A stretch of 64,000 nucleotides of DNA from Patescibacteria group bacterium. GTDB taxonomy: Bacteria; Patescibacteriota; Minisyncoccia; Phycocordibacterales; UBA918. The notes below the pieces were generated by a model. It saw only the letters and a program-made list of their open reading frames with translations. It was not told where the DNA came from and searched no databases. Positions 11,400-58,345 of the stretch are shown in pieces. Within the stretch, counting starts at the first letter, position 1, and every line of letters begins with the position of its first letter. The position numbers were made by a program, and so were the translations under genes. Location of the stretch: NCBI GenBank assembly GCA_040386275.1, contig JAZKFU010000011.1, positions 1,383-65,382 on the forward strand. The letters are read 5' to 3'.

Positions 11400-11492
11400 A
11401 AGCCTTAGATGGGGGTCCAGTGATTTTCCCAAGGAAAGAAAAAATCAGGACATAAATTCAGAATAATCACTACGTTCATTTCTTCATTCAAT
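11400..11492 (+). repeat. family B intergenic repeat, copy 1
   Basis: agatgggggtccagtgattttcccaaggaaagaaaaaatcaggacataaattcagaataatcactacgttcatttcttcattc. Hairpin tgattttcc/gaaaaaatca. Confidence 0.65.
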
Positions 11493-11503
11493 TTTTTGCG
11501 AGT

Positions 11504-12271
11504 TTAAGATCGGATTTTCCAACCTCGTTTAAATATCTGCGTAACCACCGTCCCCAACACCAACACCAAACCAACAGTAATGATTAATCCGACTACTTGA
11601 TTTGCTTCATGATAGCCAATCATTGAACCACGAATTCCATCAGCAAAGTAGAAGAATGGGTTAAGCACGGTAATTTGCGCTGCGAGTGCTGGCAACATGG
11701 TAATAGAATAGAAAATTCCGCCCAAATACGTTAAAGGTGTAATCACAAAGGTATTAAGCATTTGTAATTGTTCAAACCCTTCAGCCCACAGAGCTACAAT
11801 AATTCCTAACATCGCAAAGATGGCTGAAATGGCGGCGACGTAAAATATGAACATGAGTGGATTGGTGAGCGTCACAGCCCCAAACAACATTCCGACAATG
11901 AGAATCAGAAACGCCACAATCATCGCCCGCGCAACCGCACTCCCCACAAACCCGAGCAACATCTCAAGATACGAAAATGGTGTTATTAAAATCTCCTCAA
12001 TGCCCCGGGTAAATTTCATAAAGAATAGTGCCGACGAAGCACTGGAAAAACTCGCATTAATGATTGAAAGCATCAGTACTCCCGGAAATACAAAAGAGAT
12101 ATACGGCACCCCAGCAAAGCTTTCTATTTTTGATCCAATCACGGTACCAAAAATAAAAATGTAAAGAGCTGCAGAAATCACCGGCGCTGCCAAAGTCTGC
12201 ACTGACACACGCAAGGTTCTTTTAACTTCGCGTCTCAACATCGTATATAACCCAATCCAATTAATAGTCAT
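11504..12271 (-). CDS. ABC-2 type transporter permease
   Basis: 6-TM protein of ~255 aa directly downstream of an ABC ATPase. Typical ABC-2 architecture. Confidence 0.7.
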   Translation of the reverse strand: MTINWIGLYTMLRREVKRTLRVSVQTLAAPVISAALYIFIFGTVIGSKIESFAGVPYISFVFPGVLMLSIINASFSSASSALFFMKFTRGIEEILITPFSYLEMLLGFVGSAVARAMIVAFLILIVGMLFGAVTLTNPLMFIFYVAAISAIFAMLGIIVALWAEGFEQLQMLNTFVITPLTYLGGIFYSITMLPALAAQITVLNPFFYFADGIRGSMIGYHEANQVVGLIITVGLVLVLGTVVTQIFKRGWKIRS

Positions 12272-12273
12272 AA

Positions 12274-13038
12274 TTATTTTTTATCAGACTCACCAATAAC
12301 TGCCAAGTACGCCTCTTCAATTGATTTACCATCTTTCATAAATTCTTCTTTGGTACCTTGCGCTACAATCCGTCCATGATTAATAATCGCAATGTCTCGA
12401 CAGAGATACTGAATTTCCTCTAAATAGTGCGAGGTAAGAATAATTGTTTTTCCGCCTTCATTTAGTTCCTTGAGGTACGCCCATAATCCTCGCCGTTGTT
12501 CAACATCCACTCCAGCGGTTGGTTCATCGAGAATTAGTAGGTCCGGTGTATGCACGAGTGCTCGTCCCAACATCGCTCGACGTTTTAGTCCGCCGGATAA
12601 TTTTTGGAACTTAACATTTCTGTGTTCTTCCAAATCAAATTGTGCAATCAATTCATTAATTCGCTTCATTTTTACCTCGTGCGGAATTCCATAGTACCCA
12701 CCAATAAAATCCATAAGTTCCACCGGCGTTGAAAAAATGTCCACGTTAAATTCCTGCGGTGAGAGACCGACTTTAGTACGTGCCAATTTATAGTCAGCCA
12801 CCACATCCACCCCATCAATAAGAATTTGACCGCTAGTAGGTTGGGCGATGCCCGTAATGCAGTGAATCGTCGTCGACTTCCCCGCTCCATTGGGACCAAG
12901 CAATCCAAAAAACGCCCCCTTAGGGATAGAGAGACTTATTCCATCAACGGCAGTTTTATCATCTTTTTTCTTCCCCCCTTTGTACACCTTCACCAAATTC
13001 TTAATCTCCAACATCGGCACGTTTGAATTGTCTGACAT
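12274..13038 (-). CDS. ABC transporter ATP-binding protein
   Basis: Walker A GPNGAGKST, signature LSGGLKRR, Walker B LLILDEPTAGVD. Start moved to MSDNSNVPM (13038). Confidence 0.85.
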   Translation of the reverse strand: MSDNSNVPMLEIKNLVKVYKGGKKKDDKTAVDGISLSIPKGAFFGLLGPNGAGKSTTIHCITGIAQPTSGQILIDGVDVVADYKLARTKVGLSPQEFNVDIFSTPVELMDFIGGYYGIPHEVKMKRINELIAQFDLEEHRNVKFQKLSGGLKRRAMLGRALVHTPDLLILDEPTAGVDVEQRRGLWAYLKELNEGGKTIILTSHYLEEIQYLCRDIAIINHGRIVAQGTKEEFMKDGKSIEEAYLAVIGESDKK

Positions 13039-13086
13039 ATGTATATAATTATCACCAGTATACCAGATTTGCAAAATTAGACGTAG

Positions 13087-13114
13087 AAAAGGCGACACCG
13101 CGGTGTCGCCTTTA
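13087..13114 (-). terminator. bidirectional hairpin terminator (serves minus-strand gene 13130..13807)
   Basis: aaaaggcgacaccgcggtgtcgccttta perfect stem, T-run on minus strand. Confidence 0.6.
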
Positions 13115-13129
13115 TCAATTTTGACCAAA

Positions 13130-13807: not shown

Positions 13808-13880
13808 GTTGGCATCTCCCTTGATTTTCACAAATCAGCTTGTTTTCTAAGCTTCCGTGTAGTACCATGCCATAAATTCG

Positions 13881-19846: not shown

Positions 19847-22800
19847 TTATGAACGTAACAAAGAAATGTAATGAGCGTAGTTACTGGTTTCCGCCAAAGC
19901 TTGATCATGTATGTAATCACCTTTTATGATAGCTTTAACTGCGTCAATTAATTCTTGTGTAAGTACTTCCACTTCTGCGTCAGAAATGGTAAATGTTTCT
20001 TCATGAAGCACTCCCTTAGCATCAGGCTCTACAAACGACAACGTGCAGGTATTAGTTTGGTAACGCTCATCATTATTTAATTTTAATAGTAATGCATAAA
20101 AAACTAATTGTCGTTTATACGCACCATCGCTACTAGCCGTTTTTCCTTCAATGTCGTTACGTGTTTTTGGTTTACCAGTTTTATAATCAAGTACACGAAC
20201 AGCGTTACCCCGCGCGTCAATATCAACCCGATCTAACTTCCCTGTTAACGGGAGCTCAGGAAATTCTGGAATGCCCGTCTGCAAGAGTGTTTTTATATTT
20301 AGTTCCTCTTTAGAAGTCTCCGTAAGAGTTTGCTTCATGTGATCAATATAGGGGTAGATAACGAGTAACCCTTTATCAAGCAAGCGCACAAATTCATTGG
20401 TCGAAAGTGGTAACCGTCCCAAAGCTGTTTCGAGTTTTTGTTTGATTACCGTATCACTGGGGAAAGTGCCTGACTGTGTATGGTTCTTTGTAACATACTC
20501 TAAAACACTGTGGACGGCGGTACCAAATTGCATGTGAGCCGGCTGCACTTCAGGAACCCTAAGAACATTTCGATAAATATAATCCCAAGGATTTTTTAAA
20601 TAGTTATTAAATGAAGTTGCAGAAAAGCCCCGGTCACGTAACACCGAGGTGATAAAGTTACTATCAATCTGCAACCCCACATCATTTTGTGTTAGCGTAT
20701 TAATAGGATTAAAGTCACTAGCTCCTGCATCACTTTGCTCAGTAACATAGGAGTCATCAATTTCAGTAATCAATCGACTCTGAACCAAAGTTTTACCGCT
20801 TGTGTTACTGCTAGCACTAGAAAAATGTAGGGCAGTTTTAGCGCGCGTCATCGCTACGTAGAGCAAACGCTTTTCATCATCAATACTGTCCATATCGTCG
20901 AGGACCACTTTTTGCAGCGGTATAGTGAAATACGTTCGGTTAGTTCCCCCACCCCAGTTATTGTCCTGAAGATGTGGGATGTATACCACTTCGAATTCTA
21001 GTCCTTTAGACTTATGAGCGGTCATTACTTTGACCGAATTGGTATTACTTTCTATGTAGGGTGCTTCCATGGACACTCCATATAAGCGGCGCTGAGCCAG
21101 TTGATCACGTACGACTTGCAGCGTACTCATGCCGTCATTTTGAACTAATGATTCCACTTCGTCATATATCCGACGTACTATCCGCACACCTTCAAAGGGG
21201 CTCTGCTTCATAACGTGTGCCAAGAACCCACTTTCCTGTAAAAGATACTCTAATACTCGGTGCGGGGCATGGGAGATACTGCGGGCTCGGGCTGTTTCTA
21301 TCACGGTGACGATATTCATAGCTGCTTCCACATGGTCTACCCCCAATTCAGCTAATTTTTCTGATGAAGATAAAATAGAGAGCAAGGTTGTGGAGTAGCT
21401 TCGAGCACTACAAATTTTAATCACGTCATGGAGCGACAATCCCCAATAGGCTCCGTGAAGCACTGTAAACAATGCCTCTTCGTTATTAGTGGTAACTACT
21501 ACTGAAATTAACGCTTCAATAGTATGCGTGATTGGATGCTGCAAAATATCACCATCAGCGGACGCTGCCACTTGCATGCCTGCTTTTCGAAGTTGCGTTG
21601 CAAGCGCCTCCACTTCTTTATTAGTGCGTACAATCACAGCTATTTCCTCGAGGGGAATCCCCGCCTTACTATTTTTTACAATTGATTCAACTACCCATGA
21701 ATCTTCAATTGCTGTGTGCGCAAAACTTTGAGTAGTAACGAGTGACGCTTCCACAGTTTGAGCGAGTAGCGGAATACGTAATGCTGTAAGCGGACCATCC
21801 TCAACCGCTACCAAGCTATGGGCCGCATCTAGAATAATCTGTCCCGAACGATAGTTGTCAGTCAGACTAATGACTTTAGTTCCCATAAAGCGTTCTTGAA
21901 AGTACATGAAGTTCGTCAACGACGCTCCTTGAAACCGATAGATAGCCTGCTTCTCATCTCCTACCACAAAGATATTTGGTGAGTCATGGTATGACGCTAA
22001 GAGTTCGAGGATCTTGTTCTGCGCCCCGTTCACATCCTGATGCTCGTCCGCTAACACATACTGGTATTGCTCCTGCAAATCGCGCACCATATCTTCATTA
22101 TTAGACAAAGCCACCACCGTTTCCGCAATCATATCTTCAAAGTCATAGAGTTTAGCCTCCCGTAAACTTGCTTGGTAGTGACGATAGATATGAATGAGCT
22201 CCCTATTTTTAACAACCACTTGTTCTAACTTTGTGTAGTCACCTCGCACCTTACCTTTGTGCGCTCCTTTAGTGTGCGTTTTTTCAGTATTAGCTAATTC
22301 GTCTTCTTGACCATCAACGATTTTAGCCAACCCATCGGGGGTTATATATTCCTTTTTTAAATCAGCAATAATCCGCAAAATATGACGTACGTAGTACGAA
22401 GGGTCGCCACTCGGACGAAGCTTCTTAATAGTGGGATTATCTAAAATTGATTCAATAATAGAAATTTTCTGTATCTCGGTGGCCGGCTTCCCGCCAATAA
22501 TGCGGTCATACGCGTCAGGATACTCTCGAATTAATCTATCAGCAAAACCGTGAAAGGTATAAATCGGCACTTGGTACGCGCGAGCGCCAATATATTTTTG
22601 TAGCCGGGTACGCATCGCTTTGGCTCCAGAGTCGGTAAAGGTGATTGCTAAAATACTCGACGGGTCAGTGTCAGTTTTAAGAAGAATATTGGCAATGCGC
22701 AAGGTAAGGATTTGTGTCTTACCTGTTCCTGGTCCCGCAATTACCATAACGGGACCTTCAATAGTATCAACCGCTTCTTTCTGGGCGTCGTTGAGGTTAT

Positions 22801-22855
22801 TGTAGGCAGTATCAAATGAAGCCTTTAATTCTTGTTTTTCTTGAGTGATGGACAT
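19847..22855 (-). CDS. UvrD/PcrA-like superfamily I DNA helicase fused to C-terminal PD-(D/E)xK (RecB/AddA-type) nuclease
   Basis: N-terminal Walker A AGPGTGKTQIL. Helicase motifs across 1-700. C-terminal LDRVDIDARGNAVRVLDYKTGKP nuclease motif. Confidence 0.8.
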   Translation of the reverse strand: MSITQEKQELKASFDTAYNNLNDAQKEAVDTIEGPVMVIAGPGTGKTQILTLRIANILLKTDTDPSSILAITFTDSGAKAMRTRLQKYIGARAYQVPIYTFHGFADRLIREYPDAYDRIIGGKPATEIQKISIIESILDNPTIKKLRPSGDPSYYVRHILRIIADLKKEYITPDGLAKIVDGQEDELANTEKTHTKGAHKGKVRGDYTKLEQVVVKNRELIHIYRHYQASLREAKLYDFEDMIAETVVALSNNEDMVRDLQEQYQYVLADEHQDVNGAQNKILELLASYHDSPNIFVVGDEKQAIYRFQGASLTNFMYFQERFMGTKVISLTDNYRSGQIILDAAHSLVAVEDGPLTALRIPLLAQTVEASLVTTQSFAHTAIEDSWVVESIVKNSKAGIPLEEIAVIVRTNKEVEALATQLRKAGMQVAASADGDILQHPITHTIEALISVVVTTNNEEALFTVLHGAYWGLSLHDVIKICSARSYSTTLLSILSSSEKLAELGVDHVEAAMNIVTVIETARARSISHAPHRVLEYLLQESGFLAHVMKQSPFEGVRIVRRIYDEVESLVQNDGMSTLQVVRDQLAQRRLYGVSMEAPYIESNTNSVKVMTAHKSKGLEFEVVYIPHLQDNNWGGGTNRTYFTIPLQKVVLDDMDSIDDEKRLLYVAMTRAKTALHFSSASSNTSGKTLVQSRLITEIDDSYVTEQSDAGASDFNPINTLTQNDVGLQIDSNFITSVLRDRGFSATSFNNYLKNPWDYIYRNVLRVPEVQPAHMQFGTAVHSVLEYVTKNHTQSGTFPSDTVIKQKLETALGRLPLSTNEFVRLLDKGLLVIYPYIDHMKQTLTETSKEELNIKTLLQTGIPEFPELPLTGKLDRVDIDARGNAVRVLDYKTGKPKTRNDIEGKTASSDGAYKRQLVFYALLLKLNNDERYQTNTCTLSFVEPDAKGVLHEETFTISDAEVEVLTQELIDAVKAIIKGDYIHDQALAETSNYAHYISLLRS

Positions 22856-25981: not shown

Positions 25982-26095
25982 TCAAAACGTGGGTAGATGC
26001 AAGGCGCGCAAGGAAGTTGCTGCGAGCCGTACTTACTGTACGGCGAGCTTCAACTTGCCGCAGTCGCAACGTAGCAGATGCGTGCGTTTTGGAAG
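25982..26095 (+). repeat. family A repeat, copy 6 (forward), immediately 3' of rpoD stop
   Basis: gatgcaaggcgcg, then GAGCCGTAC-ttact-GTACGGCGA (26024-26046), then cgcaacgtagcagatgcgtgcg + tttt. Outer caaaacg/cgttttg. Confidence 0.65.
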
Positions 26096-27544: not shown

Positions 27545-27674
27545 CCACCCTGAGCTTCACAAATGGCATATTTCGTTGTTGCTCTACATAAAATAAAATT
27601 CACCGTATAAAAATACGGCTCATCTTATTTTATTTGATCGCCTAGAACTATGTCCATTTCTGAAACTCAGGGGA
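27545..27674 (-). repeat. family A repeat, copy 7 (reverse), between dnaG stop and rpoD start
   Basis: tcaccgtataaaaatacggctc (27599-27620) flanked by aaaataaaat / atcttatttt. cgcctagaa. Outer stems ccctgagcttc (27548-27558) / gaaactcaggg (27663-27674). Confidence 0.65.
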
Positions 27675-27679
27675 TTTGG

Positions 27680-29449
27680 TTAGCTATTTTTAGGGAAGAT
27701 AGTTACTTGGTATTCGGCGGCTTGCAACTGACGTCGTAGTTCGTTTACTCGCAGTAGTACGGGCATGGTGTCGCCTTCTCCGTTGGCTTCAATACTTCGC
27801 AGGGCGGCGCGTTCGATGGCTATTTTTCCTTCGATGGTTAGCTTGTGGAGTTGGTTTAGTTTATGGGTGAACTCTTCGATTTGTAATCTATATGAACTCT
27901 TTTCAATAAATTGTTCAATTTGAAACGTGAGTTTTGAGATATGGTCTGCCCCACTGATATTTTCTTGCATAAACACCTCCTCACCTACAATGGTTTTAAT
28001 TTCTCGCTCGAGAATTTCTTTCACAGGAACAGGCACGACGGTTAAGGCCGCGAGTAAATAATGTAACGTTCCTTCTTTGCGTAAAATAGTTGCGATAGGT
28101 TCGGGTTGTTTATGGGTGGGAGTAGACTCAGAGTGGTCGGTATTTTTTATGGGTTCACGTTTCTCGACTTCAAGGACCCGCAACACTTCTGCGTGAACCG
28201 CGTCTTTAGTTGTCCCAAGAGCCGTGGCGGTTATGCCTTCAAAATGGTCGCGGTCAACCATATTGGGAATGAGGGTAATAAAGGGAACAACTTCGGCAGT
28301 GGCTTTGAGTTTATACGCTCTATCGTCAGGGGTAGTGGCGCGCAAATGTGCGAGCAGGAATTCGATAATATGTGTTGCGTGCCCAACGGCTGTTTTAAAA
28401 GATTTAGGGTCTTCTAAAATCATATCCGCCGGATCAGCGCCGTCAGGCATCGCGGCTACTTTCACATCAATCCCACGCCTGAGCATCAAGTCAGCAGATT
28501 TTTTCATCGCGGCAATTCCCGCTTTATCTGAGTCTAATGCCAGCACTACTTTATTTGATAACCGCTCGAGTAACTGCACATGATGCAAGGTGAGGGCAGT
28601 ACCCGATACGGCAACGGTATTGGTGTATCCGGCTTGGTGACTCATCACCACATCAAACTGCCCTTCCACAATAATCCAAAACCCCAGGTTACGAATTCCC
28701 TGCTTGGCCATATCGTACCCGTAGAGTAATTCTGATTTATGATAGAGCTCCGTTTCTGGTGAGTTTACATATTTAGGCGCCTCAGTATCCTTCGCTAAAA
28801 TGCGACCCGAGAAACCGACTACGCGTCCCGCCTGATCCCGTAACGGAAACATGATGCGATCCCGAAACGTATCAAACGGCTCTTTACCCCCTTCCGCACT
28901 TTTTATCAGACCGGCTTTGAGCATCGTGCCCGGCAAAAACTTTTCATTAATTAAATGAGTCTTTAGTTCTCGCCATCCTGCAAGCGGTGGCCCCGGAGCG
29001 TACCCAATGCGCCATTTTTTAATAGTTTCTTTTGTCACCCCGCGCCGCTCTAGGTAGGCAGTAGCATCCACCATATTTGGTAACTGATTTTCATAGTAGG
29101 CAGTGGCCGCTTCAATAACGGCTACGAGCTCATCACGTTCTGTTTTCTTTTGTGGATTTTCTGGCACCAATTCAACCCCCGCTTTTTCAGCGAGCGTCTT
29201 TAACGCATCTTTAAATTCCACTCCATCAATGGCTTGAATAAATGAAAAAATATCTCCTCCCACTCCACACCCAAAACAGTGATAGGTTCCCCGCTCGGGA
29301 GACACATGGAATGACGGTGACTTCTCTTGATGAAACGGACATCGTGCCACAAAATGCCTCCCCGACCGAGTTAATTCCGCATACGGCGAAATCACATCAA
29401 TAATATTGATCCGATCCTTAATCTGCTGAACCGCGTCCCCTGATGCCAT
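27680..29449 (-). CDS. dnaG: DNA primase
   Basis: CHC2 zinc finger CPFHQEKSPSFHV...HCFGCG. TOPRIM region with EGQFDV. Confidence 0.9.
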   Translation of the reverse strand: MASGDAVQQIKDRINIIDVISPYAELTRSGRHFVARCPFHQEKSPSFHVSPERGTYHCFGCGVGGDIFSFIQAIDGVEFKDALKTLAEKAGVELVPENPQKKTERDELVAVIEAATAYYENQLPNMVDATAYLERRGVTKETIKKWRIGYAPGPPLAGWRELKTHLINEKFLPGTMLKAGLIKSAEGGKEPFDTFRDRIMFPLRDQAGRVVGFSGRILAKDTEAPKYVNSPETELYHKSELLYGYDMAKQGIRNLGFWIIVEGQFDVVMSHQAGYTNTVAVSGTALTLHHVQLLERLSNKVVLALDSDKAGIAAMKKSADLMLRRGIDVKVAAMPDGADPADMILEDPKSFKTAVGHATHIIEFLLAHLRATTPDDRAYKLKATAEVVPFITLIPNMVDRDHFEGITATALGTTKDAVHAEVLRVLEVEKREPIKNTDHSESTPTHKQPEPIATILRKEGTLHYLLAALTVVPVPVKEILEREIKTIVGEEVFMQENISGADHISKLTFQIEQFIEKSSYRLQIEEFTHKLNQLHKLTIEGKIAIERAALRSIEANGEGDTMPVLLRVNELRRQLQAAEYQVTIFPKNS

Positions 29450-42448: not shown

Positions 42449-43711
42449 TTAATTGCTCGCCATCTGGACTTCTTGTTGTTTCTTCTCGTAATCTGAAAAC
42501 GCTTGCGTCCAGCCCATCACTTTCGATACGTAGGTACTTGCTTCAGGTCCGTATGCCTCGACTCCTTTTTCTTTGGCACACTGGTGAATCATCGCAAAAA
42601 ATACATCGTATCCTGAGAGTGGTTCAGTTTGACCGACTAACTCAGCTGTTGATTCTGGTTCAGGATAGTTTTCCAAAAACCAACGCACTACTTCAGTCAT
42701 ACGGCGCTGTCCTGCATTGTATGAATTTATCATCAACGGCACTAAGAAATATTTTTCCATTGAAGCGGTATTCCCGTCAAAGTAAACTTTCGTTATGTAT
42801 GCTAATTCAAGATCTAGATCTTCAGCTAGTTTGGTATACGACGTTTCAATATGCTGAACACCCACTGGCAATTGATCAAGTAGATTTCGTGGATCAAGAT
42901 GCGGAAGATTGTGCTCTTTAATATATCCTTCAAATGTCCGTGGCATGGTTTGAAGCAACCCCACCGCCCCCGCTTTACTTGTCTTATTTGCATCAAAACG
43001 TGACTCTTCCGCTGCTAGTCCTATGAGATAGGGTGTAAATTCTTCTTCGACTCGTGGAGTTAATTGCGTAAAATTAGTTTCCAGTCTAATTATTGATAGA
43101 GCATCCCTCCCCTGAGGATCAGTTTCCAGTGGAGTTGTAGCGTTATCATAGACAAGTTCAACCTTACTATTCATATGCTCTGCACGGGTACTAGAGAGGT
43201 CTTGATACACATGGAGCATATTAATATCCGAAGTAGGGATATCTAATTGTTTACCAATATACGCTTCTTGCTCTTTTATCCACGCACCGGGAATTCCTTT
43301 TGGACCCGCACCTTCAAATCGCCAGGTCATTTCTTCAGGTGATAAACCGACGGACTCAGTGAGATTAAAGGGCTCAGTAATTTGTCTACCTAATGAATCC
43401 ACAAAGAGAACTTGGTCACGTCGTAACTCTCCCGCCTCAATGGTTCGAGCCGCTAACACTTTTTCAAAAACTGGCGAAGGCAATTCCTCAGCAATCATTT
43501 CCGCATCGTCTATTCGTTCTACTCTCTCATTTGTGTCTTTTGCAGACTCTTCAGTTCGATCCAACTTTTCCGTATAGCTATATCCCTCTTTTGCCATAGC
43601 TCCTAACGCAAGCGTCGAGCCAATAAGACCAGCCTTCATTGTTCCTTGTGCCCATTTCCCTGGGTTATACCGTTTTTCTACTTTTATGTTTGAAATAGGA
43701 GTTTTTTCCAT
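42449..43711 (-). CDS. secreted/membrane-anchored lytic transglycosylase (SLT) domain protein
   Basis: AAEESRFDANKTSKAGAVGLLQTMPRTF matches the SLT catalytic ES...GLMQ motif. N-terminal hydrophobic anchor. Confidence 0.5.
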   Translation of the reverse strand: MEKTPISNIKVEKRYNPGKWAQGTMKAGLIGSTLALGAMAKEGYSYTEKLDRTEESAKDTNERVERIDDAEMIAEELPSPVFEKVLAARTIEAGELRRDQVLFVDSLGRQITEPFNLTESVGLSPEEMTWRFEGAGPKGIPGAWIKEQEAYIGKQLDIPTSDINMLHVYQDLSSTRAEHMNSKVELVYDNATTPLETDPQGRDALSIIRLETNFTQLTPRVEEEFTPYLIGLAAEESRFDANKTSKAGAVGLLQTMPRTFEGYIKEHNLPHLDPRNLLDQLPVGVQHIETSYTKLAEDLDLELAYITKVYFDGNTASMEKYFLVPLMINSYNAGQRRMTEVVRWFLENYPEPESTAELVGQTEPLSGYDVFFAMIHQCAKEKGVEAYGPEASTYVSKVMGWTQAFSDYEKKQQEVQMASN

Positions 43712-44219: not shown

Positions 44220-44297
44220 ATTTCACCTCAACGAGTACAAGTTCCAGGAGTTTGGCCTAGGAAAGGGCCAAACTCGGAACAAAATTCGCAATATGCC
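44220..44297 (+). repeat. tandem structured repeat, unit 1 (~78 nt)
   Basis: atttcacctcaacgagtacaagttccag, then hairpin gtttggcc-taggaaa-gggccaaac (44250-44273), then tcggaacaaaattcgcaata. Confidence 0.55.
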
Positions 44298-44332
44298 TTC
44301 TTAACTTTAAAACATATTACTTCGGTAGAGAT

Positions 44333-44410
44333 AATTTCAACGATTTCAGGTTCTAGCAATTTGCCCTAGGAAAAAGGGGCAAATTGAGAACAAAATTCGC
44401 AATACACCCT
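44333..44410 (+). repeat. tandem structured repeat, unit 2 (~78 nt), followed by UUCG-loop hairpin at 44404-44418
   Basis: aatttcaacgatttcaggttctagc, then hairpin aatttgccc-taggaaaaag-gggcaaatt (compensatory changes relative to unit 1), then gagaacaaaattcgcaata. Then acaccc-ttcg-ggtgt + T-rich. Confidence 0.55.
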
Positions 44411-44427
44411 TCGGGTGTTTGCTCATT

Positions 44428-46683
44428 TTATTTCGCAACAGCCAATGCATCCTCGAACTTTACTGAGAGCAATTTAGATACCCCATCACTCCCCATAGTT
44501 ACACCATACAAAATTCCCGCTCGACTCATAGTTTCGCGATTGTGGGTAATTAAAATTAGTTGGGACTTTTCTGACAGAGCCTGAATCATATCACCGTAGC
44601 GCCGACTGTTGGCTTCGTCTAAAGCAGCGTCTGTTTCATCGAGGATAATAAACAGGGGTGGATTGACCTGACTCATCGCAAAGATTAAGGCGATTGATGT
44701 TAGAGCACGTTCACCACCGGACAACATCTCGAGCCCTTTCACGCGCTTGTTTGGTAACGCGACATCAAGTTCCACCCCTTCCTCCTTCCCTTCTTCTTCA
44801 GACAATGTTTCTGCTCCTTCATCATCAATTACTTTTACTTTTGGCTTCACTCGTTTAAGCTCTGCTTTTCCCCCGCCAAACATCAAGACAAAGAACCGAT
44901 TGAACTCGGTACCAATTTTATCAATCCCGGCGATAAATCGTTCGTTTAACTGGGCGTTTAATTCGGTGATGAGTGACTCTAATTTTTCAACTGAACTTTC
45001 TAAATCACTAATTTCGCGCGCCAAAAACTGATCTCGCTCTTCAGCATCTTTATGCTCCTTAAGCACGTCTTCGGTAGCACCAATCCCCAATTCTTCGAGT
45101 CTTATTTTTAATTTCTCAAGCGCCCGTCTGCGATCACGTTGTATACTTCGATCTTCATTTACAATTTGCTCAGTTGAAACCGCTACTCCATTGTCGATGA
45201 TTTCGTAATTAAAATACTGAGCGGCGGCACTTTTGATTAAGGTGACTGCTTCTTGTAACTCTTGTTTAAATTCATCACGGTCCCGTTCTAGTACAAATAA
45301 TTCCCGATCAATTTTCTCGAGTTCTATATCAACCAGACGTTGCTCGCTCACGAGCGAAAAAACGGCTCGTTCAGCATCGCGATTATTCAAAGCTTCGGCT
45401 TCAATGGACGCTTTAAGCGCATCGTATGCAGACTGTGCGATTTGTTCTTTTTGTTGTGCTGCTTGATGGGCTGATTCAAGGCTTTTATTTTGTTGCGTTA
45501 ATTCTCGCAACTCTGCTTCTTCAGCTTTAGTATCTTCAAGCGCCGTTGGTTCGTTGCGGGTAATAAAGACCTTAAGGGTATGCACGATATCGGACAAAGC
45601 CCGTTTAAGTATCGCCACATCGTCACGCTTGAGCGCTTTTTCAACCTCACTTTCAATTGTAGTGATGAGTGACTCGTATGACGCGACATTCACAAATTGC
45701 GTTTGGGTCGTTGGCTTTTGTTGTTGCTTAGCTTCAATGCGCTTGGTAACGTACGCAATTTGTCCCTCGAGTTGATTGAGGGCGCGAAAGGCTGATTGCC
45801 GTGCGGACCGGGCATTTGCTAAGTTTTCTTCAGCTTCACTCACCGCTGAGTTACCTGATTTATTTTCTGCTTTTCGTAACGTATCTTTGGCTTCGGCAAG
45901 TTGCTGCGCTAATTTTTCTTTGAGTTCAGAGGGGGTACGTCTCGCTTCCTTTAAGGCATCAACATGGTACGCAATGTACGTGTCTTCTCGTTTAAGGTAT
46001 TCGGCATAGACTGATTTTAATTCCGCTTGGACTTGCAGAGATTTCTCAACGCGCGCCACTTGTTTTTTGAGGTATGCTAAATGCGGTGCGTGTTCTCGCC
46101 TGAGTGACTGCACCTGTTCGATATTTCCTTTAGTTTTTTCGAGTTTCTTTTCTGCTTCGTTCTTTTTGTATTGATACACTTTGAGTCCCAAGGCATCTTC
46201 AATCATTTCACGACGTTCGCGGCCTGAAGCAGAGAGAATCCGGTCGGCTTCCCCTTGAGAAATAATATGATGCCCAGTTGAACCTATATTAGCGGCCGCC
46301 AGTAGTTCTTGAACATCCTTTAACCGTACCTGGGAATCATTAATAAAATATTCATTTTGTCCATCGCGATGGACCACGCGCTCAATTTTGATACTATCAA
46401 AATCTACTCCAAATACCCGCTTGGTATTGTCGAGCATCACGGATACCGAGGCTCGGTTTCCCCGAGACACTGATTCCGAACCACCCCAGATTAAATCTTC
46501 TCCGCGCTTTCCACGCAATGACTTAACAGACTGTTCCCCGAGTACAAACCGAAAGGCTTCAGCGACGTTACTTTTCCCTGAACCATTTGGTCCGACAATT
46601 GAGGTAATGGGTGCAGAAAATTCCAGCTCGCTCTTTTTAGCAAAAGATTTAAAACCATTAATACTGAGTTCTTGAAGGTACAT
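44428..46683 (-). CDS. SMC-family chromosome segregation ATPase (short form, 751 aa)
   Basis: N-terminal Walker A GPNGSGKSNV. Long coiled coil. C-terminal signature LSGGERALTSIAL and Walker B FIILDETDAALD. Confidence 0.7.
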   Translation of the reverse strand: MYLQELSINGFKSFAKKSELEFSAPITSIVGPNGSGKSNVAEAFRFVLGEQSVKSLRGKRGEDLIWGGSESVSRGNRASVSVMLDNTKRVFGVDFDSIKIERVVHRDGQNEYFINDSQVRLKDVQELLAAANIGSTGHHIISQGEADRILSASGRERREMIEDALGLKVYQYKKNEAEKKLEKTKGNIEQVQSLRREHAPHLAYLKKQVARVEKSLQVQAELKSVYAEYLKREDTYIAYHVDALKEARRTPSELKEKLAQQLAEAKDTLRKAENKSGNSAVSEAEENLANARSARQSAFRALNQLEGQIAYVTKRIEAKQQQKPTTQTQFVNVASYESLITTIESEVEKALKRDDVAILKRALSDIVHTLKVFITRNEPTALEDTKAEEAELRELTQQNKSLESAHQAAQQKEQIAQSAYDALKASIEAEALNNRDAERAVFSLVSEQRLVDIELEKIDRELFVLERDRDEFKQELQEAVTLIKSAAAQYFNYEIIDNGVAVSTEQIVNEDRSIQRDRRRALEKLKIRLEELGIGATEDVLKEHKDAEERDQFLAREISDLESSVEKLESLITELNAQLNERFIAGIDKIGTEFNRFFVLMFGGGKAELKRVKPKVKVIDDEGAETLSEEEGKEEGVELDVALPNKRVKGLEMLSGGERALTSIALIFAMSQVNPPLFIILDETDAALDEANSRRYGDMIQALSEKSQLILITHNRETMSRAGILYGVTMGSDGVSKLLSVKFEDALAVAK

Positions 46684-47862: not shown

Positions 47863-48579
47863 TTAATCAGCCTCCCAGCCCTTGGCAATCAAAGCCTTTT
47901 CTGCCGCTGCTTGTTCAGCCTCTTGTTTAGAACGACCATCTCCTTCAGCAATCTTTTCTTGTCGCAAAAATACTCCGACGGTAAACACGCGATCATGGTC
48001 GGGACCACTTTGACTCATCAATTGATAGGTTGGCGTCACGGAAGCATGTTCTTGTCCCAATTCCTGGAATCGACTTTTTGCATCTTGCCATAATTTTTTG
48101 CGGACAATCTCATCAGTTTTAGGGAATAGTTCTCGCGCCACAAATGTACGCGCAACATCAAACCCTTGATCTAAATAAATAGCTCCGATAAACGCTTCAA
48201 AAACGTTCGCTAGGATGTATTGTCGGGCCCGCCCTTCATCTTTGGCTTCACCCTTACTCATCAGTAGGTATTGATTTACTCCGAGCGCTTCGGATGATGC
48301 TGAAAGTGACACGGTATTAACCAACGCTGCCCGGATAGCAGTTAATTCCCCTTCTGGTTTATCCGCGTACGTTTTAAATAGATAGTCAGTCACTACTAGC
48401 TCCAATACCGCGTCTCCCAAAAACTCCAACCGTTCATTATGGTCTTGAGTAGCATTACGATGCTCATTTAAATATGAACGATGGGTAATCGCAGAGAGTA
48501 ACAGCTGCTTATCAGTAAAAACGACACCTAATATTTCTTCCAAGCTGGCTAAATCATCTTCAATGTTTCGTGCATCCAT
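47863..48579 (-). CDS. rnc: ribonuclease III
   Basis: RNase III signature ERLEFLGDAVLELVV and C-terminal dsRBD. Start moved to MDARNIED (48579). Confidence 0.85.
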   Translation of the reverse strand: MDARNIEDDLASLEEILGVVFTDKQLLLSAITHRSYLNEHRNATQDHNERLEFLGDAVLELVVTDYLFKTYADKPEGELTAIRAALVNTVSLSASSEALGVNQYLLMSKGEAKDEGRARQYILANVFEAFIGAIYLDQGFDVARTFVARELFPKTDEIVRKKLWQDAKSRFQELGQEHASVTPTYQLMSQSGPDHDRVFTVGVFLRQEKIAEGDGRSKQEAEQAAAEKALIAKGWEAD

Positions 48580-48668
48580 AAAATAGAAATAAGATATTTG
48601 TTTATTTGAATCGATAGAAATGAGTGCAATTCGCGTGAGAAGTGACCTTATGTCACTTCGCAAGACTC

Positions 48669-48718
48669 ACCCTGTTACTTTATGAACTAAAGTGAAATAA
48701 AGTAACGAGTGAGTAGAC
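48669..48718 (+). promoter_or_regulatory. long imperfect hairpin just upstream of rnc start
   Basis: actcaccctgttactttat ... ataaagtaacgagtgagt inverted repeat. Confidence 0.3.
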
Positions 48719-48749
48719 AGTTCCTGTAAGGAAGGGCAAGGAAAATATT

Positions 48750-48838
48750 TCTCGAAGTGCGGTCCAGCGATTTTCCTTAGGAGGAAAAATCGGGACATAA
48801 ATTCAGAATAATCGCTACGCTCATTTCTTCATTCACCA
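48750..48838 (+). repeat. family B intergenic repeat, copy 2
   Basis: ctcgaagtgcggtccagcgattttccttaggaggaaaaatcgggacataaattcagaataatcgctacgctcatttcttcattc. Hairpin cgattttcc/ggaaaaatcg. Confidence 0.65.
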
Positions 48839-48856
48839 TTTGTATCGATTCTAGCA

Positions 48857-50137: not shown

Positions 50138-50291
50138 AGTGGCGCAACTATAACAAATCTACGTAAAAACGCAAGCAAGCCAAGGAATGTAACAACCATA
50201 GCTAACTTAATTCCTGATTTGTCTCTTTCTAAGGCAAATTGCTAGAACTGTCGCGTAATTGTTAACTTTTTGAGTAAAAAAGAGAGATAAG

Positions 50292-51788: not shown

Positions 51789-54700
51789 ATGTCAGAGAAT
51801 TCTTCAATAAAATCAACGTTTGTTCACCTCCACACCCACTCGCACTATACGCTTTTAGGAGCCCTCCCAACCCCCAAAGAACTCGCCAAAGCGGCCAAGG
51901 AAGATGGTCAAGAGGCACTGGCTATTACTGATGCAGGCGCGCTCTATGGAGCAATTGATTTTTATAAAGCCTGCACCAAAGAAGGTATCAAACCAATTAT
52001 TGGTCTTGATGCGTACCTCGCTCCGCGGACGCGCCATGATAAGGAAGCGATGATTGATAAACCGCGCGCGCGAGTAGTACTGTTAGCTAAAACATTTGCC
52101 GGCTATCAAAATCTGATTCAGCTGGTGACGCGGTCAAACTTTGAAGGCTTTTACTACAAACCCCGACTCGATGAGGAGTTACTGAAAGAGTACGCCAAAG
52201 ATTTAATTTGCATCATCCCCTCTTTCGCCGGTGAAGTGGCCCACGCCCTTAAAGATGGCGATACCGAACGTGCTGAACAACGACTTGATTGGTATAAGGG
52301 TGTCTTTGGTGATGATTGTTACCTTGAACTCACTCACCATCCAGCGATGTATGAACACGCCGAAAATCAAAAACGAATTGTGGCGTTAGCGCACAAAACG
52401 AATACCCCACTCGTGGCGGCGCACGATGTGTATTACCTCAAGCCGACCGATAGACTCGCCCGAGCCACGATGCACAAAATTCAAAGTGGTGGAGTAGTTG
52501 ATACCAGTAGCGTCGAAGACGACAATGAGGATTTTAGTTTTATTACTCAAGCCGACGCAGCCGAGCGATTTAAAGATACCCCTGAAGCGTTAACCAACAC
52601 CATCAAGATAGCAGAACAATGTAACGTAGAAATTGAGATTGGTACGCACTGGTATTTCCCTGATTACAAAATTGACTCGGGACGTACCCCGGATGAAGAA
52701 CTCCAAGTAACGGCCTATGAAGGCGTGGCCTGGCGAGGATTATCTATTGAGTCTGAGGAAGTTAAAACGAGACTCGACTATGAGCTGGAGGTAATTAAAA
52801 ACAAAGGCTACGCCAAATACTTCCTCGTGGTAGGTGACTTGCTTCGCGAGTCGCGTGAGCGAGGGATTTTGACAACCATTCGAGGATCAGTGGCGGGCTC
52901 ACTCACTACGTACGTGCTGGGGATTACCAACGTAGACCCCTTGGAATACAAATTACCGTTTGAACGATTCCTTAACCCCGAACGACCATCAGCACCGGAT
53001 ATCGACATGGACTACGCTGATAATCGGCGTGACGAAATTATTGAATACGCCAAATCAAAATATGGTGCTGATAAAGTAGCGCAAATTGGAACCTTCGGAA
53101 CTATGATGGCCCGCGCTGCTGTGCGCGACGTAGCGCGCGCACTTGGTCATCCGTATTCAGTTGGTGACAGACTCGCCAAAATGATTCCGATGGGAAGTCA
53201 GGGATTTGCGATGACTATTAAGCGCGCCATGGAAATTGAGCCGGAGCTGGCCAAACTCTATAAGAGTGACGGTGAGAGTCGTGAAGTACTTGATCTCGCG
53301 CGACAAATTGAAGGGCGCGTCCGCCACCTTGGGGTACACGCCGCGGGTGTGGTTATTGCCCCTGCCCCGTTGTCACAGTTTGTACCGTTGCAACCCGACC
53401 CGAAAACCGGAAAATTTGTGACGCAGTACGAAATGAAATCTGTCGGAGAAGACGGCGTGGGACTACTCAAGTTCGACTTTCTGGGTATTAAAAACCTGGC
53501 GATTTTAGCGGACGCGGTGAAGCGCGTAAAAAAGATTCGTAATGAGGTGGTTGATATTGAAAACATTCCGCTTAATGACCCTAAAACGTTTGCCATTTTA
53601 GCGGCGGGCCAAACGATGGGTCTCTTCCAATTAAATGGTTCGGGGATGACGAGTTTTCTTAAACAGCTCAAGCCGACCAGTATCCACGACATTAACGCGA
53701 TGGTAGCGCTCTACCGCCCGGGACCGATGGAATCAATTCCCCAATACATTGAACGAAAACACAATCCGCAATTGGTGACGTACCTCGACCCGCGCATGAA
53801 AACGATTCTTGATCGTTCATATGGCGTTATTACCTACCAGGACGACGTTATGACGATTGCGCGTGAACTTGCAGGCTACAGCTGGCTTGAAGCTGACATG
53901 TTGCGTAAGGCGATGGGTAAGAAAATTCCGGAGGTGATGGAGGCGGAAAAAGATAAACTCCTCACCGGGTTTGCGAACTTTGGAAAATTACATCCGTCGT
54001 TGGGTGACAAGCTCTGGAAATTGATTGAACCTTTTGCAGCGTACGGATTTAACAAAGCACACGCCGCCTCCTACGGTCGGGTTGCCTACCAAACCGCTTA
54101 CATGAAAGCCAACTACCCAGTTGAATACATGTCTGCGGTGTTAACCGCTGACGCCGGCGACGTGGAAAAGATTTCGGAAATTATTCACGAGTGTGACCGG
54201 ATGGGCATTGAGGTGCTCCCGCCTGATATCAACGAATCGTTTGCCGACTTCTCGGTAGTGCCCGGCACGCAAACTATTCGCTTTGGTTTAACTACCATCA
54301 AAAACTTTGGTGAGGCAATTTCTGAAGCAATTATTGAAGACCGCAAAGCCCACGGCCCGTACACCTCCATGCAGGACTTCTTATCGCGATTAACCCACCG
54401 AAATTTAAATAAAAAATCACTCGAAGCCTTGGTGCTTGTGGGTGCCTTTGATAGTTTCGGAGAACGAGGCTTCCTGCATGCCAACATTGAACACATGCTG
54501 GAGTTTAACCGCGAAAAAGTAGCCGCCCGTGAATCAGCTCAAGACTCACTGTTTGGTATGGGCAGTGGCAGTGTGAGTGACCTCACCTTAACCCCGGCAC
54601 CGCCCGCACCGACCGCGACTAAATTAATTTGGGAAAAAGAGCTGTTGGGAGTATACCTCTCGGGACATCCTCTGGATGCTTTTAAGGAAGAACTCGCCAA

Positions 54701-55883: not shown

Positions 55884-55887
55884 CAAC

Positions 55888-55913
55888 ACGCGCCCGCAAC
55901 CGGGCGCGTTTTC
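55888..55913 (+). terminator. rho-independent terminator
   Basis: acgcgcccg-caac-cgggcgcgt + tttc. Confidence 0.7.
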
Positions 55914-55927
55914 TTATGCCTGAGCAA

Positions 55928-56155: not shown

Positions 56156-56185
56156 ATTACCAATAATTACCAACTAGACGTTCAG

Positions 56186-56288
56186 AATCAAATGCAGTAC
56201 GCGGCATGGAGAAAAAGAGTTGTGAGCCGTATGCCTATACGGTGAATAAATCTTAGAGGCTCTATAACAAAGTAACGCATTGATTGTG
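56186..56288 (+). repeat. family A repeat, copy 11 (forward), between leader terminator and thrS start
   Basis: gcggcatggag, then GAGCCGTAT-gcc-TATACGGTGA (56224-56245), then ctataacaaagtaacgcattgattg. Outer aatcaaatgc / gcattgatt. Confidence 0.55.
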
Positions 56289-56306
56289 GACGTCTCCCCC
56301 CCCCAT

Positions 56307-58061
56307 ATGGAAAATTCATTACAAAACAAACGACACACTCTCGCCCACCTCCTCGGTGCCGCGGTGTTACAAAACTACCCACACGCCAAACTCACGCTTG
56401 GTCCGGCGATTGATAACGGGTTTTATTACGACTTTGATTTTACGGGCGGACCAACGCTCGGTGACGATGGACTCAAAGAAGTACAGAAGTCGATGAAGAA
56501 AATCCTCAATGGGTGGAATGAATTTTCACACCGTGAAGTGAGTGTTGACGAAGCGCGCACGCTCTACGCCTCTAATCCGTTCAAGCTAGAGCTCGTGAAT
56601 GAAATCGCCGAACGGGGTGAAACCATTACCCTCTATACAGTCGGGGATTTTACCGACCTTTGTCGGGGCGGACACTGTAAACACCCCAACAAGGAGCTCA
56701 ACACCGATGCTTTTAAACTTGATAAAGTAGCGGGAGCTTATTGGCGTGGTGATGAGAAAAATCCCATGCTCACCCGCGTGTATGGCCTGGCGTTTGATAC
56801 ACCAGAAGAACTACATGAGTATCTCACCATGATTGAAGAAGCCAAAAAACGCGACCACCGTAAACTCGGTAAAGAGATGGGATTGTTTTCGTTTTCTGAA
56901 TTAGTCGGTGCAGGACTTCCCCTTTGGTCACCCAAAGGTACTGCACTGCGTCAACGGCTTGATGCCTTTGTGCAAGAACTCCGCGATGCGCGCGGGTACG
57001 AACACGTGACCATTCCCCACATTGCAAAAAAGTCTCTCTACGAAACCTCAGGTCACTGGAATAAATATAGTGAAGACTTATTTAAAGTGAGCGCTAAAGA
57101 AGGTGATGAACACGAAATGTATGTTCTTAAACCAATGAACTGTCCCCACCACACGCAAATCTATGATGCGGTCCCCCGTTCATACCGTGACCTCCCGCAA
57201 CGCTACGCTGAAACTACTATGGTGTACCGGGCAGAACAGTCAGGAGAATTAAATGGTCTGACTCGGGTACTTTCTATCACTCAAGATGACGCACATGTGT
57301 TTTGTCGCGAATCCCAACTACGTGACGAGATTGAAAAAATTTGGGACATCGTCAATGAATTTTATGGAGCGTTTAATTTCAAATTACGCGTCAGGCTTTC
57401 CTTCCATGACCCGGCTGACAAAGAAAAATATTTAGGTGACGCTAGTATCTGGGAAGAAACAGAAAGTCTGATGAAACAAATCGCCACCGACCGCAACGCC
57501 GACTATTTTGAAGGTGTCGGTGAAGCTGCGTTCTACGCTCCTAAACTCGACTTTATGGCCAAAGATTCAATTGGTCGCACCCACCAGGTAGCTACTATCC
57601 AACTCGATCGATTAATGCCAGGGCGGTTTAATTTATTCTGCACCAACGAAAAGGGTGAGAAGGAACCAATCGTTATGATTCACGCTGCTATTGCTGGATC
57701 ACTAGAACGGTTTTTAGCAGTATTGATCGAACACGTCGGCGGGAACTTCCCGCTCTGGCTCGCACCGGAACAAATAAAAATTATTCCGGTGAATGAAGCA
57801 CATATGCCATATGCAGAAAAAGTGTTTGCCGAACTAAAAGCAGCCGGACTGCGCGTAACACTCGATGGCGATAACGAATCAATGGGCAAGAAAATCCGCG
57901 CCGCCAAAACCAACCGCCTCCCCTACTTCATCGTCCTTGGAGATCAAGAAGTAGCCGACCAAACCGTCACCCTAGAAAAACGAGACGGCACCAAACAAGT
58001 ACTCCCCCTGTCAGACCTAACCCTCAAACTAACCACCGAAGTCCAAACCAAAGCCATCTAA
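56307..58061 (+). CDS. thrS: threonyl-tRNA synthetase (lacks N-terminal TGS domain)
   Basis: Editing domain HxxxH...CxxxH-like region. Class II core FRxE, HCPHHTQIYD zinc site. Anticodon-binding C-terminus. Confidence 0.9.
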   Translation: MENSLQNKRHTLAHLLGAAVLQNYPHAKLTLGPAIDNGFYYDFDFTGGPTLGDDGLKEVQKSMKKILNGWNEFSHREVSVDEARTLYASNPFKLELVNEIAERGETITLYTVGDFTDLCRGGHCKHPNKELNTDAFKLDKVAGAYWRGDEKNPMLTRVYGLAFDTPEELHEYLTMIEEAKKRDHRKLGKEMGLFSFSELVGAGLPLWSPKGTALRQRLDAFVQELRDARGYEHVTIPHIAKKSLYETSGHWNKYSEDLFKVSAKEGDEHEMYVLKPMNCPHHTQIYDAVPRSYRDLPQRYAETTMVYRAEQSGELNGLTRVLSITQDDAHVFCRESQLRDEIEKIWDIVNEFYGAFNFKLRVRLSFHDPADKEKYLGDASIWEETESLMKQIATDRNADYFEGVGEAAFYAPKLDFMAKDSIGRTHQVATIQLDRLMPGRFNLFCTNEKGEKEPIVMIHAAIAGSLERFLAVLIEHVGGNFPLWLAPEQIKIIPVNEAHMPYAEKVFAELKAAGLRVTLDGDNESMGKKIRAAKTNRLPYFIVLGDQEVADQTVTLEKRDGTKQVLPLSDLTLKLTTEVQTKAI

Positions 58062-58092
58062 ATCCTTTCAATCGATTGAAAGCACGTACAAC

Positions 58093-58123
58093 AAAAACCC
58101 TCACGCAAAGCGTGAGGGTTTTT
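58093..58123 (+). terminator. rho-independent terminator after thrS
   Basis: aaaaaccctcacgcaaagcgtgagggttttt. Confidence 0.75.
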
Positions 58124-58189
58124 GCTTAACTCAAGGTCAAGTTCCCGATAAAGTGTCAAAATTAAATGAAGTGCTCAAAGCCATAAAAC

Positions 58190-58214
58190 AAAATCGCCCA
58201 GAAGGGCGATTTTG
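58190..58214 (+). terminator. second bidirectional hairpin
   Basis: aaaatcgccc-agaa-gggcgatttt. Confidence 0.5.
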
Positions 58215-58249
58215 TTTTATGCTCTAAGTCCTCGATAAAATGGATATAG

Positions 58250-58345
58250 TGGATGAAGTGCTAGGAGCGGTCCAGCGATTTTCTCAAGGGAAGAAAAAAT
58301 CGGGACAGAAATTCAGAATAATCGCTACGCTCGTTTCTTCATTCC
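58250..58345 (+). repeat. family B intergenic repeat, copy 3
   Basis: gatgaagtgctaggagcggtccagcgattttctcaagggaagaaaaaatcgggacagaaattcagaataatcgctacgctcgtttcttcattc. Compensatory hairpin cgattttct/agaaaaaatcg. Confidence 0.65.

Follow-up and report, generated by a model that had tools for sequence, protein, structure and literature searches.

Three copies of a two-hairpin element in a patescibacterial contig

The DNA studied here is a 64,000-nt window from a Patescibacteria group bacterium (assembly GCA_040386275.1, contig JAZKFU010000011.1, positions 1,383-65,382), and it carries three plus-strand copies of a short structured intergenic element that we call Family B. Each copy faces the 3' end of a convergent minus-strand gene. 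Copy 1 (11414-11489) ends 14 nt from the stop codon (11504-11506) of an ABC-2 permease gene, copy 2 (48761-48834) lies 22 nt from the stop of a gene for a NusB-NUDIX fusion, and copy 3 (58269-58344) lies 33 nt from the stop of a gene for an 842-aa protein; the first two neighbours were assigned with Pfam, and the third has no Pfam match. A first-pass annotation of the same DNA had reported three copies of about 90 nt at these places, close to minus-strand stop codons, and both the places and the gene neighbours were borne out: a 27-nt degenerate core, allowing up to three mismatches, matches exactly these three sites in the window, against 0.00 matches in dinucleotide shuffles. The conserved block is real but extends over about 76 nt and not 90, and the flanks are unrelated among the copies.

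The unit consists of a first hairpin (HP1), a linker of 1-2 nt and a second hairpin (HP2). HP1 occupies 11415-11451, 48762-48796 and 58270-58306 in copies 1, 2 and 3, and HP2 occupies 11454-11489, 48799-48834 and 58309-58344; the copies score 96.3, 102.8 and 99.1 bits, respectively, against a covariance model (CM) of the family. The 15 bp of HP1 comprise a 5-bp foot (GUYC/GRAC) and a 10-bp upper stem, with a two-base AG bulge in the hairpin, and the HP1 loops are purine-rich, as had been claimed (UAGGAAA, UUAGGAGG; TTAGGAGG in copy 2). What had been taken for a tail behind a single hairpin is HP2, with the stem AAAU-UC-NNAA / UUN'N'-UC-AUUU and a 16-nt loop, UARUCGCUACGCUCRU, that encloses a 2-bp mini-helix (GC-UAC-GC) and is nearly invariant, in part through the pattern used to find it.

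Distribution across genomes

An exact-match scan with AAATTCAGAATAATCNCTACG over one genome per GTDB species returned 29 loci, all of them in Patescibacteria (Kaiserbacteria, Paceibacterota, Parcubacteria, two labelled Saccharibacteria and one Elulimicrobium), with up to eight element-bearing contigs in a single metagenome-assembled genome. Metagenome contigs scanned with a looser pattern gave at least 120 stretches, and viral contigs scanned with that pattern gave no match. The GTDB and metagenome matches listed together comprise at least 144 distinct instances at at least 149 loci (numbered here with the prefix L); every count of position, orientation and gene boundary given below is a count among these listed instances, and a lower bound. 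Family B, first described as a local family of three, is thus a structured module of about 76 nt that recurs in many copies across Patescibacteria and that also joins with a second set of modules, Family A, treated below. Two outcomes had been named as refuting the element, a match to something known, such as an insertion sequence end or a tRNA fragment, or a family of only three copies; no such match was found, and more than 140 additional copies were recovered that are strongly supported by structure.

The copies are not always solitary. Direct tandems of two to three units with gaps of 0-1 nt are found in L063 (1371-1482) and L110 (2740-3010), and in L082 (3285-3601) two B units face each other across a spacer of about 146 nt that is flanked by a 20-bp inverted repeat. 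The element is also present in rRNA trailers, after the 16S gene in L066 and after the 5S gene in L005 and L014; the B-like copy in L066 is situated about 230 nt downstream of the 16S gene, ahead of that gene's terminator.

Covariation of the two hairpins

Base pairing was tested over a first set of 25 homologues and then over a covariance-model alignment of 122 sequences, and covariation was strong in both. HP1, the NN and R positions of HP2 and all flanks had been left free by the fishing pattern. Twelve of the 15 HP1 pairs are changed on both sides among the 25 sequences. Over the 25 pairs of the whole unit in 122 sequences, standard pairing accounts for 93.4% of cells (71.9% in shuffled alignments) and falls to 46-53% when partners are slid by one column. 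Double changes are seen in 23 of the 25 pairs, a number that no shuffle reaches; none of 500 shuffles matches the observed pairing, the double-change pairs, the cells changed on both sides or the covariation score, and one of the 500 matches the count of further pair types. The NN positions of HP2 always match (AG/CT, GC/GC, AC/GT, GA/TC, AT/AT, TG/CA, AA/TT, GT/AC, TT/AA, CC/GG), and both of these pairs show every Watson-Crick type in the 122 sequences. The compensatory stem originally proposed, cgattttcc/ggaaaaatcg, was confirmed: in copy 1 a C>T change is paired with G>A (GTGATT/AATCA in HP1), and in the HP2 mini-helix of the same copy, as in a few others, A-U replaces G-C (TCACTACGTTC).

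Both hairpins also occur in variant forms. The HP2 loop is kept on different stems, for example in L080 (CCTAAAACA/TGTTTTAGG), and the stem is kept with its top swapped for a GC hairpin at 44344-44429 of the window, at L066:709 and in L078. There is a second class of HP1 (CGCGGAUAA...UUACUCGCG), and the atpG loci carry HP1 hairpins that are unrelated to either; these show HP2 to be the constant part of the module. A pairing of the HP1 5' arm with the tail (AGCGATT/AATCGCT), hinted at by copy 1, was dropped, as copies with GCAATT still carry AATCGCT.

Position relative to gene boundaries

The HP2 end nearly always adjoins a gene boundary, which is either the start codon of a gene on the same strand or the stop codon of a convergent gene. 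A same-strand start codon lies within a few nt of HP2 in 34 of the 144 instances, with a sharp mode at +2 (TCATTYA-ATG, 15 cases); a convergent stop codon lies there in 71, mostly at -5 to +2 and often as the TGA within AATGA; and 39 have neither type of boundary. The arrangement of the window copies, downstream of a minus-strand gene, covers half of the wider rule, in which a same-strand start codon may abut HP2 instead. In all four orientation classes the commonest gap next to HP2 is 0-2 nt and the median spacer next to HP1 is 140-190 nt; the classes number 51 (-,-), 32 (+,+), 17 (-,+) and 16 (+,-) instances.

Genes that start after HP2 encode RecR, the ribosomal proteins S19, S14 and L11, ATP synthase gamma, EF-P, TIM, Dus and an aminotransferase. 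Several of these associations recur in divergent genomes, with HP1 stems that are compensated: the element precedes recR in L003, L017, L024 and L062, rpsS in L025, L083 and L095, atpG in L002 and L076 and efp in L009, L031 and L064. A 3' position is likewise retained, with one gene of about 700 aa followed by the element in L039, L104 and L108. The families that recur among 709 neighbouring proteins are ordinary housekeeping ones, and neither a transposase nor a nuclease is among them.

Four loci upstream of a pilB-like ATPase gene (L056, L092, L149 and L052) share a further arrangement, in which a strong TATAAT box and a leaderless mini-ORF (open reading frame), ATG AGG TGG TAA (MRW*/MGW*), are followed by the B element and then by the ATG of the gene. 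This mini-ORF may be a leader peptide.

Leaderless genes and strand signals

In the window, an extended -10 box (TGnTATACT) precedes the ATG of most genes by 6-9 nt and a Shine-Dalgarno (SD) site is lacking, for example at 51789, 42449-43711, 27680-29449 and 19847-22855. The same layout is seen over 827 genes from all loci, where -10-like hexamers most often have their last base at -7 from the ATG (110, compared with a background of some 18) and SD-like motifs are rare, barely over background. Because the -10 boxes peak so close to the start codon and SD-like motifs scarcely exceed chance, the host genomes look largely leaderless, with few SD sites. In L066 (440-500) the 3' tail of the 16S gene reads GGAUUAAUUCC in place of GGAUCACCUCC and the CCUCC anti-SD is missing; the 16S gene of L087 retains the canonical tail.

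Genes that begin directly after HP2 must be transcribed through the element, because no -10 box fits between HP2 and their ATG. Other features also point to the sense strand, namely the start-codon contact itself, a real but modest, roughly 3-fold enrichment of -10-like boxes that lie 27-41 nt upstream of HP1 (the recR loci, for example, have gtgtTATAAT), canonical terminators directly after some copies, a conserved G.U in class-2 HP1 stems, U.G wobbles in the outer stems of Family A and of long-form elements, and a slightly greater stability of HP1 in sense (74 vs 37). The antisense strand is indicated by HP2: its conserved UC/UC internal loop becomes a stabilising tandem G.A there, its terminal A.C becomes G.U in 50 copies, and its fold is better in antisense in 94 of 105 informative cases, against 11 in sense. 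Convergent genes with their stop codon within HP2 or beside it must have the antisense strand in their transcripts, and in about a third of such cases a terminator is found beyond HP1. Judged from this arrangement of genes, both strands must certainly occur in messages, the sense strand in predicted 5' leaders and the antisense strand in predicted 3' untranslated regions (UTRs). A sigma-70 promoter scan, which demands a -35 box that the host genomes seem not to use, gave promoter-like matches at the three window copies on the minus strand only.

Diverged copies, composite forms and Family A

Running the covariance model over the window recovered further, diverged copies. Two stand in tandem on the plus strand: one at 44235-44308 (43 bits, E = 6.5e-8), with CAACGAGTACAA, the HP1 loop TAGGAAA, AAAATTCGCAATA and a degenerate HP2, and one at 44344-44429 (53 bits, E = 2.1e-10), in which the HP2 top is CACCC-TTCG-GGTG and the end overlaps the stop (44428) of a convergent SMC-family gene (Pfam). 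A minus-strand copy at 3158-3243 (38.7 bits, E = 7.5e-7) overlaps with its HP2 end the stop codon of a convergent CNNM/CBS gene (2202-3164; Pfam). A weak minus-strand match at 50184-50254 (25.6 bits, E = 0.0013) has an HP1-type hairpin and no canonical HP2, and its membership is uncertain; 15 nt past this hairpin begins a 22-codon hydrophobic ORF (MVVTFLGLLAFLRRFVIVAPLW; 50140-50210, minus strand).

Copy 2 forms the 3' module of a composite, long-form element of about 245 nt (48608-48851, plus strand) that takes up the entire spacer between the nusB-NUDIX gene and rnc. An outer stem, GAATCGATA (48608-48616) with TATCGATTC (48843-48851), encloses in order the 5' motif GAAATGAGTGCAATTC, three internal hairpins, HP1 and HP2, and the whole folds with a minimum free energy of -80.1 kcal/mol (z = -6.3). 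Long forms were found in at least nine genomes, with outer stems that are copy-specific in sequence yet paired. In an alignment of nine sequences, 24 of 73 predicted pairs show double changes and the outer stem covaries; relative to the window, the orthologous locus L010 has G-C to A-U, G-C to C-G and C-G to U.G exchanges in that stem.

The minus strand of this region has features of its own. From 48876 to 48780 it shows a promoter-like TTGGCA-17-TGcTAGAAT, followed after 8 nt by the ATG of a 20-codon ORF (MVNEEMSVAIILNLCPDFSS) that runs antisense to HP2 and HP1 of copy 2, and L010 retains the -10 box. A transcript from this promoter-like site would have the whole 245-nt antisense as the leader of rnc (RNase III, 47863-48573).

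Upstream of copy 3 lies GTGGATGAAG (58249-58258), able to pair with CTTCATTCCAC (58336-58346), and a TATAGT box is found at 58243-58248. Between thrS and copy 3 there are two canonical bidirectional terminators (A-tract, GC hairpin, T-tract) at 58093-58125 and 58188-58224, and the second would end the message of the 842-aa gene after readthrough of the copy 3 antisense. That gene (58378-60906, minus strand) contains internal DNA repeats, 59237-59301 with 59978-60042 and 60390-60459 with 60630-60699, and its product has no Pfam domain at E <= 1e-5; presumably it is a repetitive surface protein.

Family A is represented in the window by six copies, at 4621-4687, 26002-26058 and 40335-40401 on the plus strand and at 334-375, 1882-1923 and 27569-27610 on the minus strand. 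Each is a long hairpin with the conserved core AGTTCTAGGCG ... GAGCCGTAC-loop-GTACGGTGAG ... CAACAACGAAATGCG and a perfect, copy-specific closing stem of 13-19 bp with U.G wobbles, and none has an Rfam match. Family A is a module related to Family B. In long forms B comes after an A-type 3' motif (CGAAATGCG), B is appended to A in L028, L016 and L011, and in L012, the orthologue of window 40335-40401, a B unit is nested inside the A element immediately before AACGAAATG; the window orthologue is without B. The orthology of L010 and L012 to window loci places the window in a Kaiserbacteria-like genome. The two families together contribute about 13 modules to the 64 kb, seven B-like and six A-like. 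That the HP2 loop might be complementary to the 3' motif of Family A was considered and rejected; the match reaches 9 of 10 positions in one A copy and is not conserved in others.

Comparison with known elements

In agreement with the first-pass annotation, which could place the element in no RNA class, Rfam 15 returned no match at the gathering threshold for the whole window, and at E <= 10 the only match for copy 2 was SCARNA15, at 12.5 bits against a threshold of 65. Searches of ten further loci and of window positions 1-5000 gave nothing on the elements and found a tRNA, which served as a positive control. No description of the element was found in the literature on structured RNAs of Patescibacteria, leaderless genes, REP (repetitive extragenic palindromic) sequences and their RAYT enzymes (REP-associated tyrosine transposases), transposable elements of the miniature inverted-repeat kind (MITEs) or small RNAs. 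The element is new, in the sense that it is absent from Rfam and from the searchable literature, and it belongs to a known kind, the multi-copy structured intergenic or UTR element.

Several specific identities were rejected. Neither a tRNA nor a tmRNA fits, as ARAGORN finds no gene in the window, the unit ends GGTCCAG and TTCATTC are not complementary, and the covariation describes two separate hairpins; the 64-kb window as a whole contains no tRNA gene and no Rfam family at the gathering threshold. Integron attC sites have the opposite layout to a conserved centre on variable stems, and no GTTRRRY box is present and the neighbours are core housekeeping genes. A riboswitch or gene-specific leader is at odds with downstream genes that are unrelated and with the half of the copies that face a convergent gene. 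The HP2 loop has no 10/11 match to 23S, 5S or partial 16S rRNA from the loci, and the HP1 loop is an implausible SD site, being about 55 nt from the AUG in genomes of which at least one has a 16S gene without CCUCC.

Discussion

The structure, conservation, copy number, positional rule and leaderless context of Family B are established, and we tentatively favour its being an RNA module that would define or process mRNA ends. The HP2 loop and the overall two-hairpin shape would be recognised in trans by a conserved factor, either a nuclease or an RNA-binding protein. If sense copies were cut or blocked at the 3' foot of HP2, the next AUG would come to stand at, or 1 nt from, a 5' end. This leaderless form, the one used by most genes in these genomes, would thereby be supplied to internal cistrons (atpG, rpsS, rpsN) and to long-leader genes (recR). 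In antisense copies, the situation of all three in the window, the hairpins directly past a convergent stop codon would cap its 3' UTR. An end-defining role of this kind would account for the one-sided flush contact, the location in operons and rRNA trailers, and the leaderless background. A more specific and rather speculative version is a dedicated and universally conserved two-hairpin RNA punctuation mark in Patescibacteria that have mostly abandoned SD initiation, in which a factor or the RNA itself cuts or blocks at the HP2 foot, internal and long-leader cistrons become leaderless, convergent messages receive capped 3' ends, and the 16-nt loop is the recognition code.

Several observations weigh against an end-defining role. 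Co-directional genes show 51 antisense and 32 sense copies, and with orientation so mixed a strictly sense-strand RNA role fails for most copies, including the three in the window; an RNA-binding factor, moreover, cannot read the 16-nt loop alike from both strands. The strand signals of HP1 and HP2, in wobbles as in folding energy, conflict, and although the claim that this is a structured nucleic-acid element and not a peptide stands, sequence alone settles neither which strand is selected and acts nor whether it does so as RNA or as single-stranded DNA. The fishing pattern fixed most of the HP2 loop, so that its invariance is partly built in. The tandem arrays (L063, L110), the inverted pair (L082) and the presence of B in L012 and its absence from the window orthologue look like mobility. 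The proposed cleavage or protection, like the factor and the acting strand, is purely inferred.

If these signs of mobility are taken at face value, Family B may be a REP- or MITE-like hairpin, selfish or domesticated, whose HP2 loop is read on single-stranded DNA by a trans-encoded Y1/HUH (RAYT-like) enzyme, with gene ends being merely the places where insertions are tolerated. We consider this possible but improbable. The high copy number (seven B-like and six A-like modules in 64 kb), both orientations, the abutting and inverted units and the discrete 76-nt unit that distinguishes L012 from its orthologue would all follow from it; HUH enzymes read conserved loops on covarying stems, the loop motif CTAC is the complement of the REP GTAG, and the mixed G.U and A.C statistics suit DNA hairpins. 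The GTAG of the complement sits in the loop and not at a stem foot, and only one inverted pair was seen. Against mobility, no transposase or RAYT-like gene recurs and no Y1-like family appears among the 709 neighbouring proteins, and viral contigs gave no copy. A MITE in the strict sense was rejected, as the unit ends (GGTCCAGCG... / ...TTCATTC) are not inverted repeats and the flanks of more than 100 copies share no target-site duplication; the outer stems of the long forms are not transposase-type inverted repeats either, because they are copy-specific and covary. That divergent genomes keep the element at the same gene, its stems changing in a compensatory way, argues for selection on each copy, and flush contact on one side only is unexpected from random tolerated insertion. 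About as doubtful, in our view, is that Family B is a docking site for a global translational regulator of the Csr/Rsm type or for the ribosome (30S), with AUG-adjacent modules controlling initiation in SD-poor genomes and stand-alone or tandem copies titrating the factor as decoy small RNAs. An AUG 1 nt past HP2 in at least 15 diverse housekeeping genes, the -10-like boxes upstream of HP1, the canonical terminators that give some copies a small-RNA-like appearance (L054, L060, L072, L114), the tandem arrays and the usual AGGA or AGGAGG in HP1 loops, resembling CsrA sites, are consistent with such docking. Against it, half of the copies face a convergent gene and leave a terminator no space, the promoter motif is seen in only about 20-25% of copies and exceeds AT-rich intergenic DNA modestly, some HP1 loops are without GGA (GGGCUAAAGCC), the atpG copies have an unrelated HP1, and no candidate protein was found.

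Two further readings seem to us much less probable. A new self-cleaving ribozyme that frees the downstream message by cleavage at its 3' edge is very unlikely, even though many copies in either orientation, tandems, a small invariant core, covarying helices and sharp boundaries recall twister and hammerhead, and cleavage at the HP2 foot would yield leaderless mRNAs; no model of a known family matched (hammerhead, twister, twister-sister, pistol, hatchet, HDV, hairpin), even at E up to 10, the two hairpins stand side by side with no tertiary pairing or pseudoknot detected, known small ribozymes do not cut at their extreme 3' end, and variants with a plain GC hairpin in place of the HP2 loop persist. 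We think it least likely of all that the element is an intrinsic or bidirectional terminator, or a short protein gene on the reverse strand. Its place directly past convergent stop codons, the U-rich 3' strand of HP2 and the GC hairpin ahead in some variants would suit a terminator, but the scan finds no terminator-like site at the three copies, neither strand has a U-tract after HP1, the sequence there being AUAAAUUC in sense and non-U flanks in antisense, and the element lies inside ribosomal-protein and atp operons, where termination would be harmful. For a small protein speaks the minus-strand TGcTAGAAT box 8 nt before the ATG of the 20-codon ORF in copy 2; as the first-pass annotation had noted, that ORF is not kept, being closed or absent in copies 1 and 3, and it is closed in most subtypes as well. 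A single reverse frame is open through HP2, and the covarying positions change its residues radically (E>Q, M>T, L>A) with the base pairs kept. The frame relative to the downstream ATG also varies (offsets 1 and 2).

Known systems offer partial parallels. The REP sequences and BIMEs (bacterial interspersed mosaic elements) of enterobacteria and Pseudomonas, with their RAYT enzymes, are likewise short, high-copy intergenic hairpins near gene ends in either orientation, with a conserved motif by a covarying stem, and they can stabilise mRNA 3' ends; they are species-specific, whereas B couples two different hairpins in a fixed pair, has a conserved loop of 16 nt, spans classes of a superphylum, usually occurs singly or in direct tandem and not in alternating pairs, has one end flush with a start or stop codon and has no RAYT among its neighbours. 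BOX, RUP, ERIC and Correia elements resemble A and B in being modular, combinable by nesting or appending, and co-transcribed with neighbours, but are confined to the species or genus level, carry inverted repeats at their ends or target duplications, and lack compensatory evolution across phyla. The tRNAs that punctuate mitochondrial transcripts are, like B, structured units of about 75 nt on either strand, flush with leaderless coding regions and near rRNA genes, and cleavage at their edges exposes a 5'-terminal AUG, which for B is only proposed; B is not a tRNA, lacks acceptor pairing and is passed over by ARAGORN, and processing by RNase P or RNase Z is not implied. The intercistronic sites of phage T7 that RNase III cuts (R1.1 and others) and the processing stalks of rRNA are repeated conserved hairpins with internal loops between cistrons, and cleavage leaves a protective 3' hairpin and frees the next cistron. 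Long forms and A modules close with stems of 13-25 bp, the size cut by RNase III, and copy 2 adjoins rnc; short B units, in contrast, have no long duplex, and a sequence-specific 16-nt loop is foreign to RNase III sites. CsrB/RsmZ decoys and CsrA sites share with B the use of the same hairpin near start codons and in stand-alone or tandem form, with AGGA often in the loop, but the most conserved part of B is an HP2 loop without GGA, and a promoter or terminator of its own is missing from many a copy.

A large share of bacterial diversity belongs to Patescibacteria, whose genomes are tiny and streamlined and on which almost no experiments have been done. In these genomes A and B modules fill a sizeable part of the scarce intergenic space, at about 13 in 64 kb of the window. 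Should Family B turn out to be a mobile hairpin of the REP type, no such family would have been described before for the superphylum, and even then it would serve as a useful marker for annotating gene boundaries and for finding the partner enzyme. The flush contact with start and stop codons in a leaderless, SD-poor context provides a handle on how internal cistrons are expressed and how messages end, and there is a non-trivial chance that the element represents a new gene-punctuation system for leaderless bacteria, which, if true, would give bacteria an equivalent of the tRNA punctuation of mitochondria, made from a module other than a tRNA.

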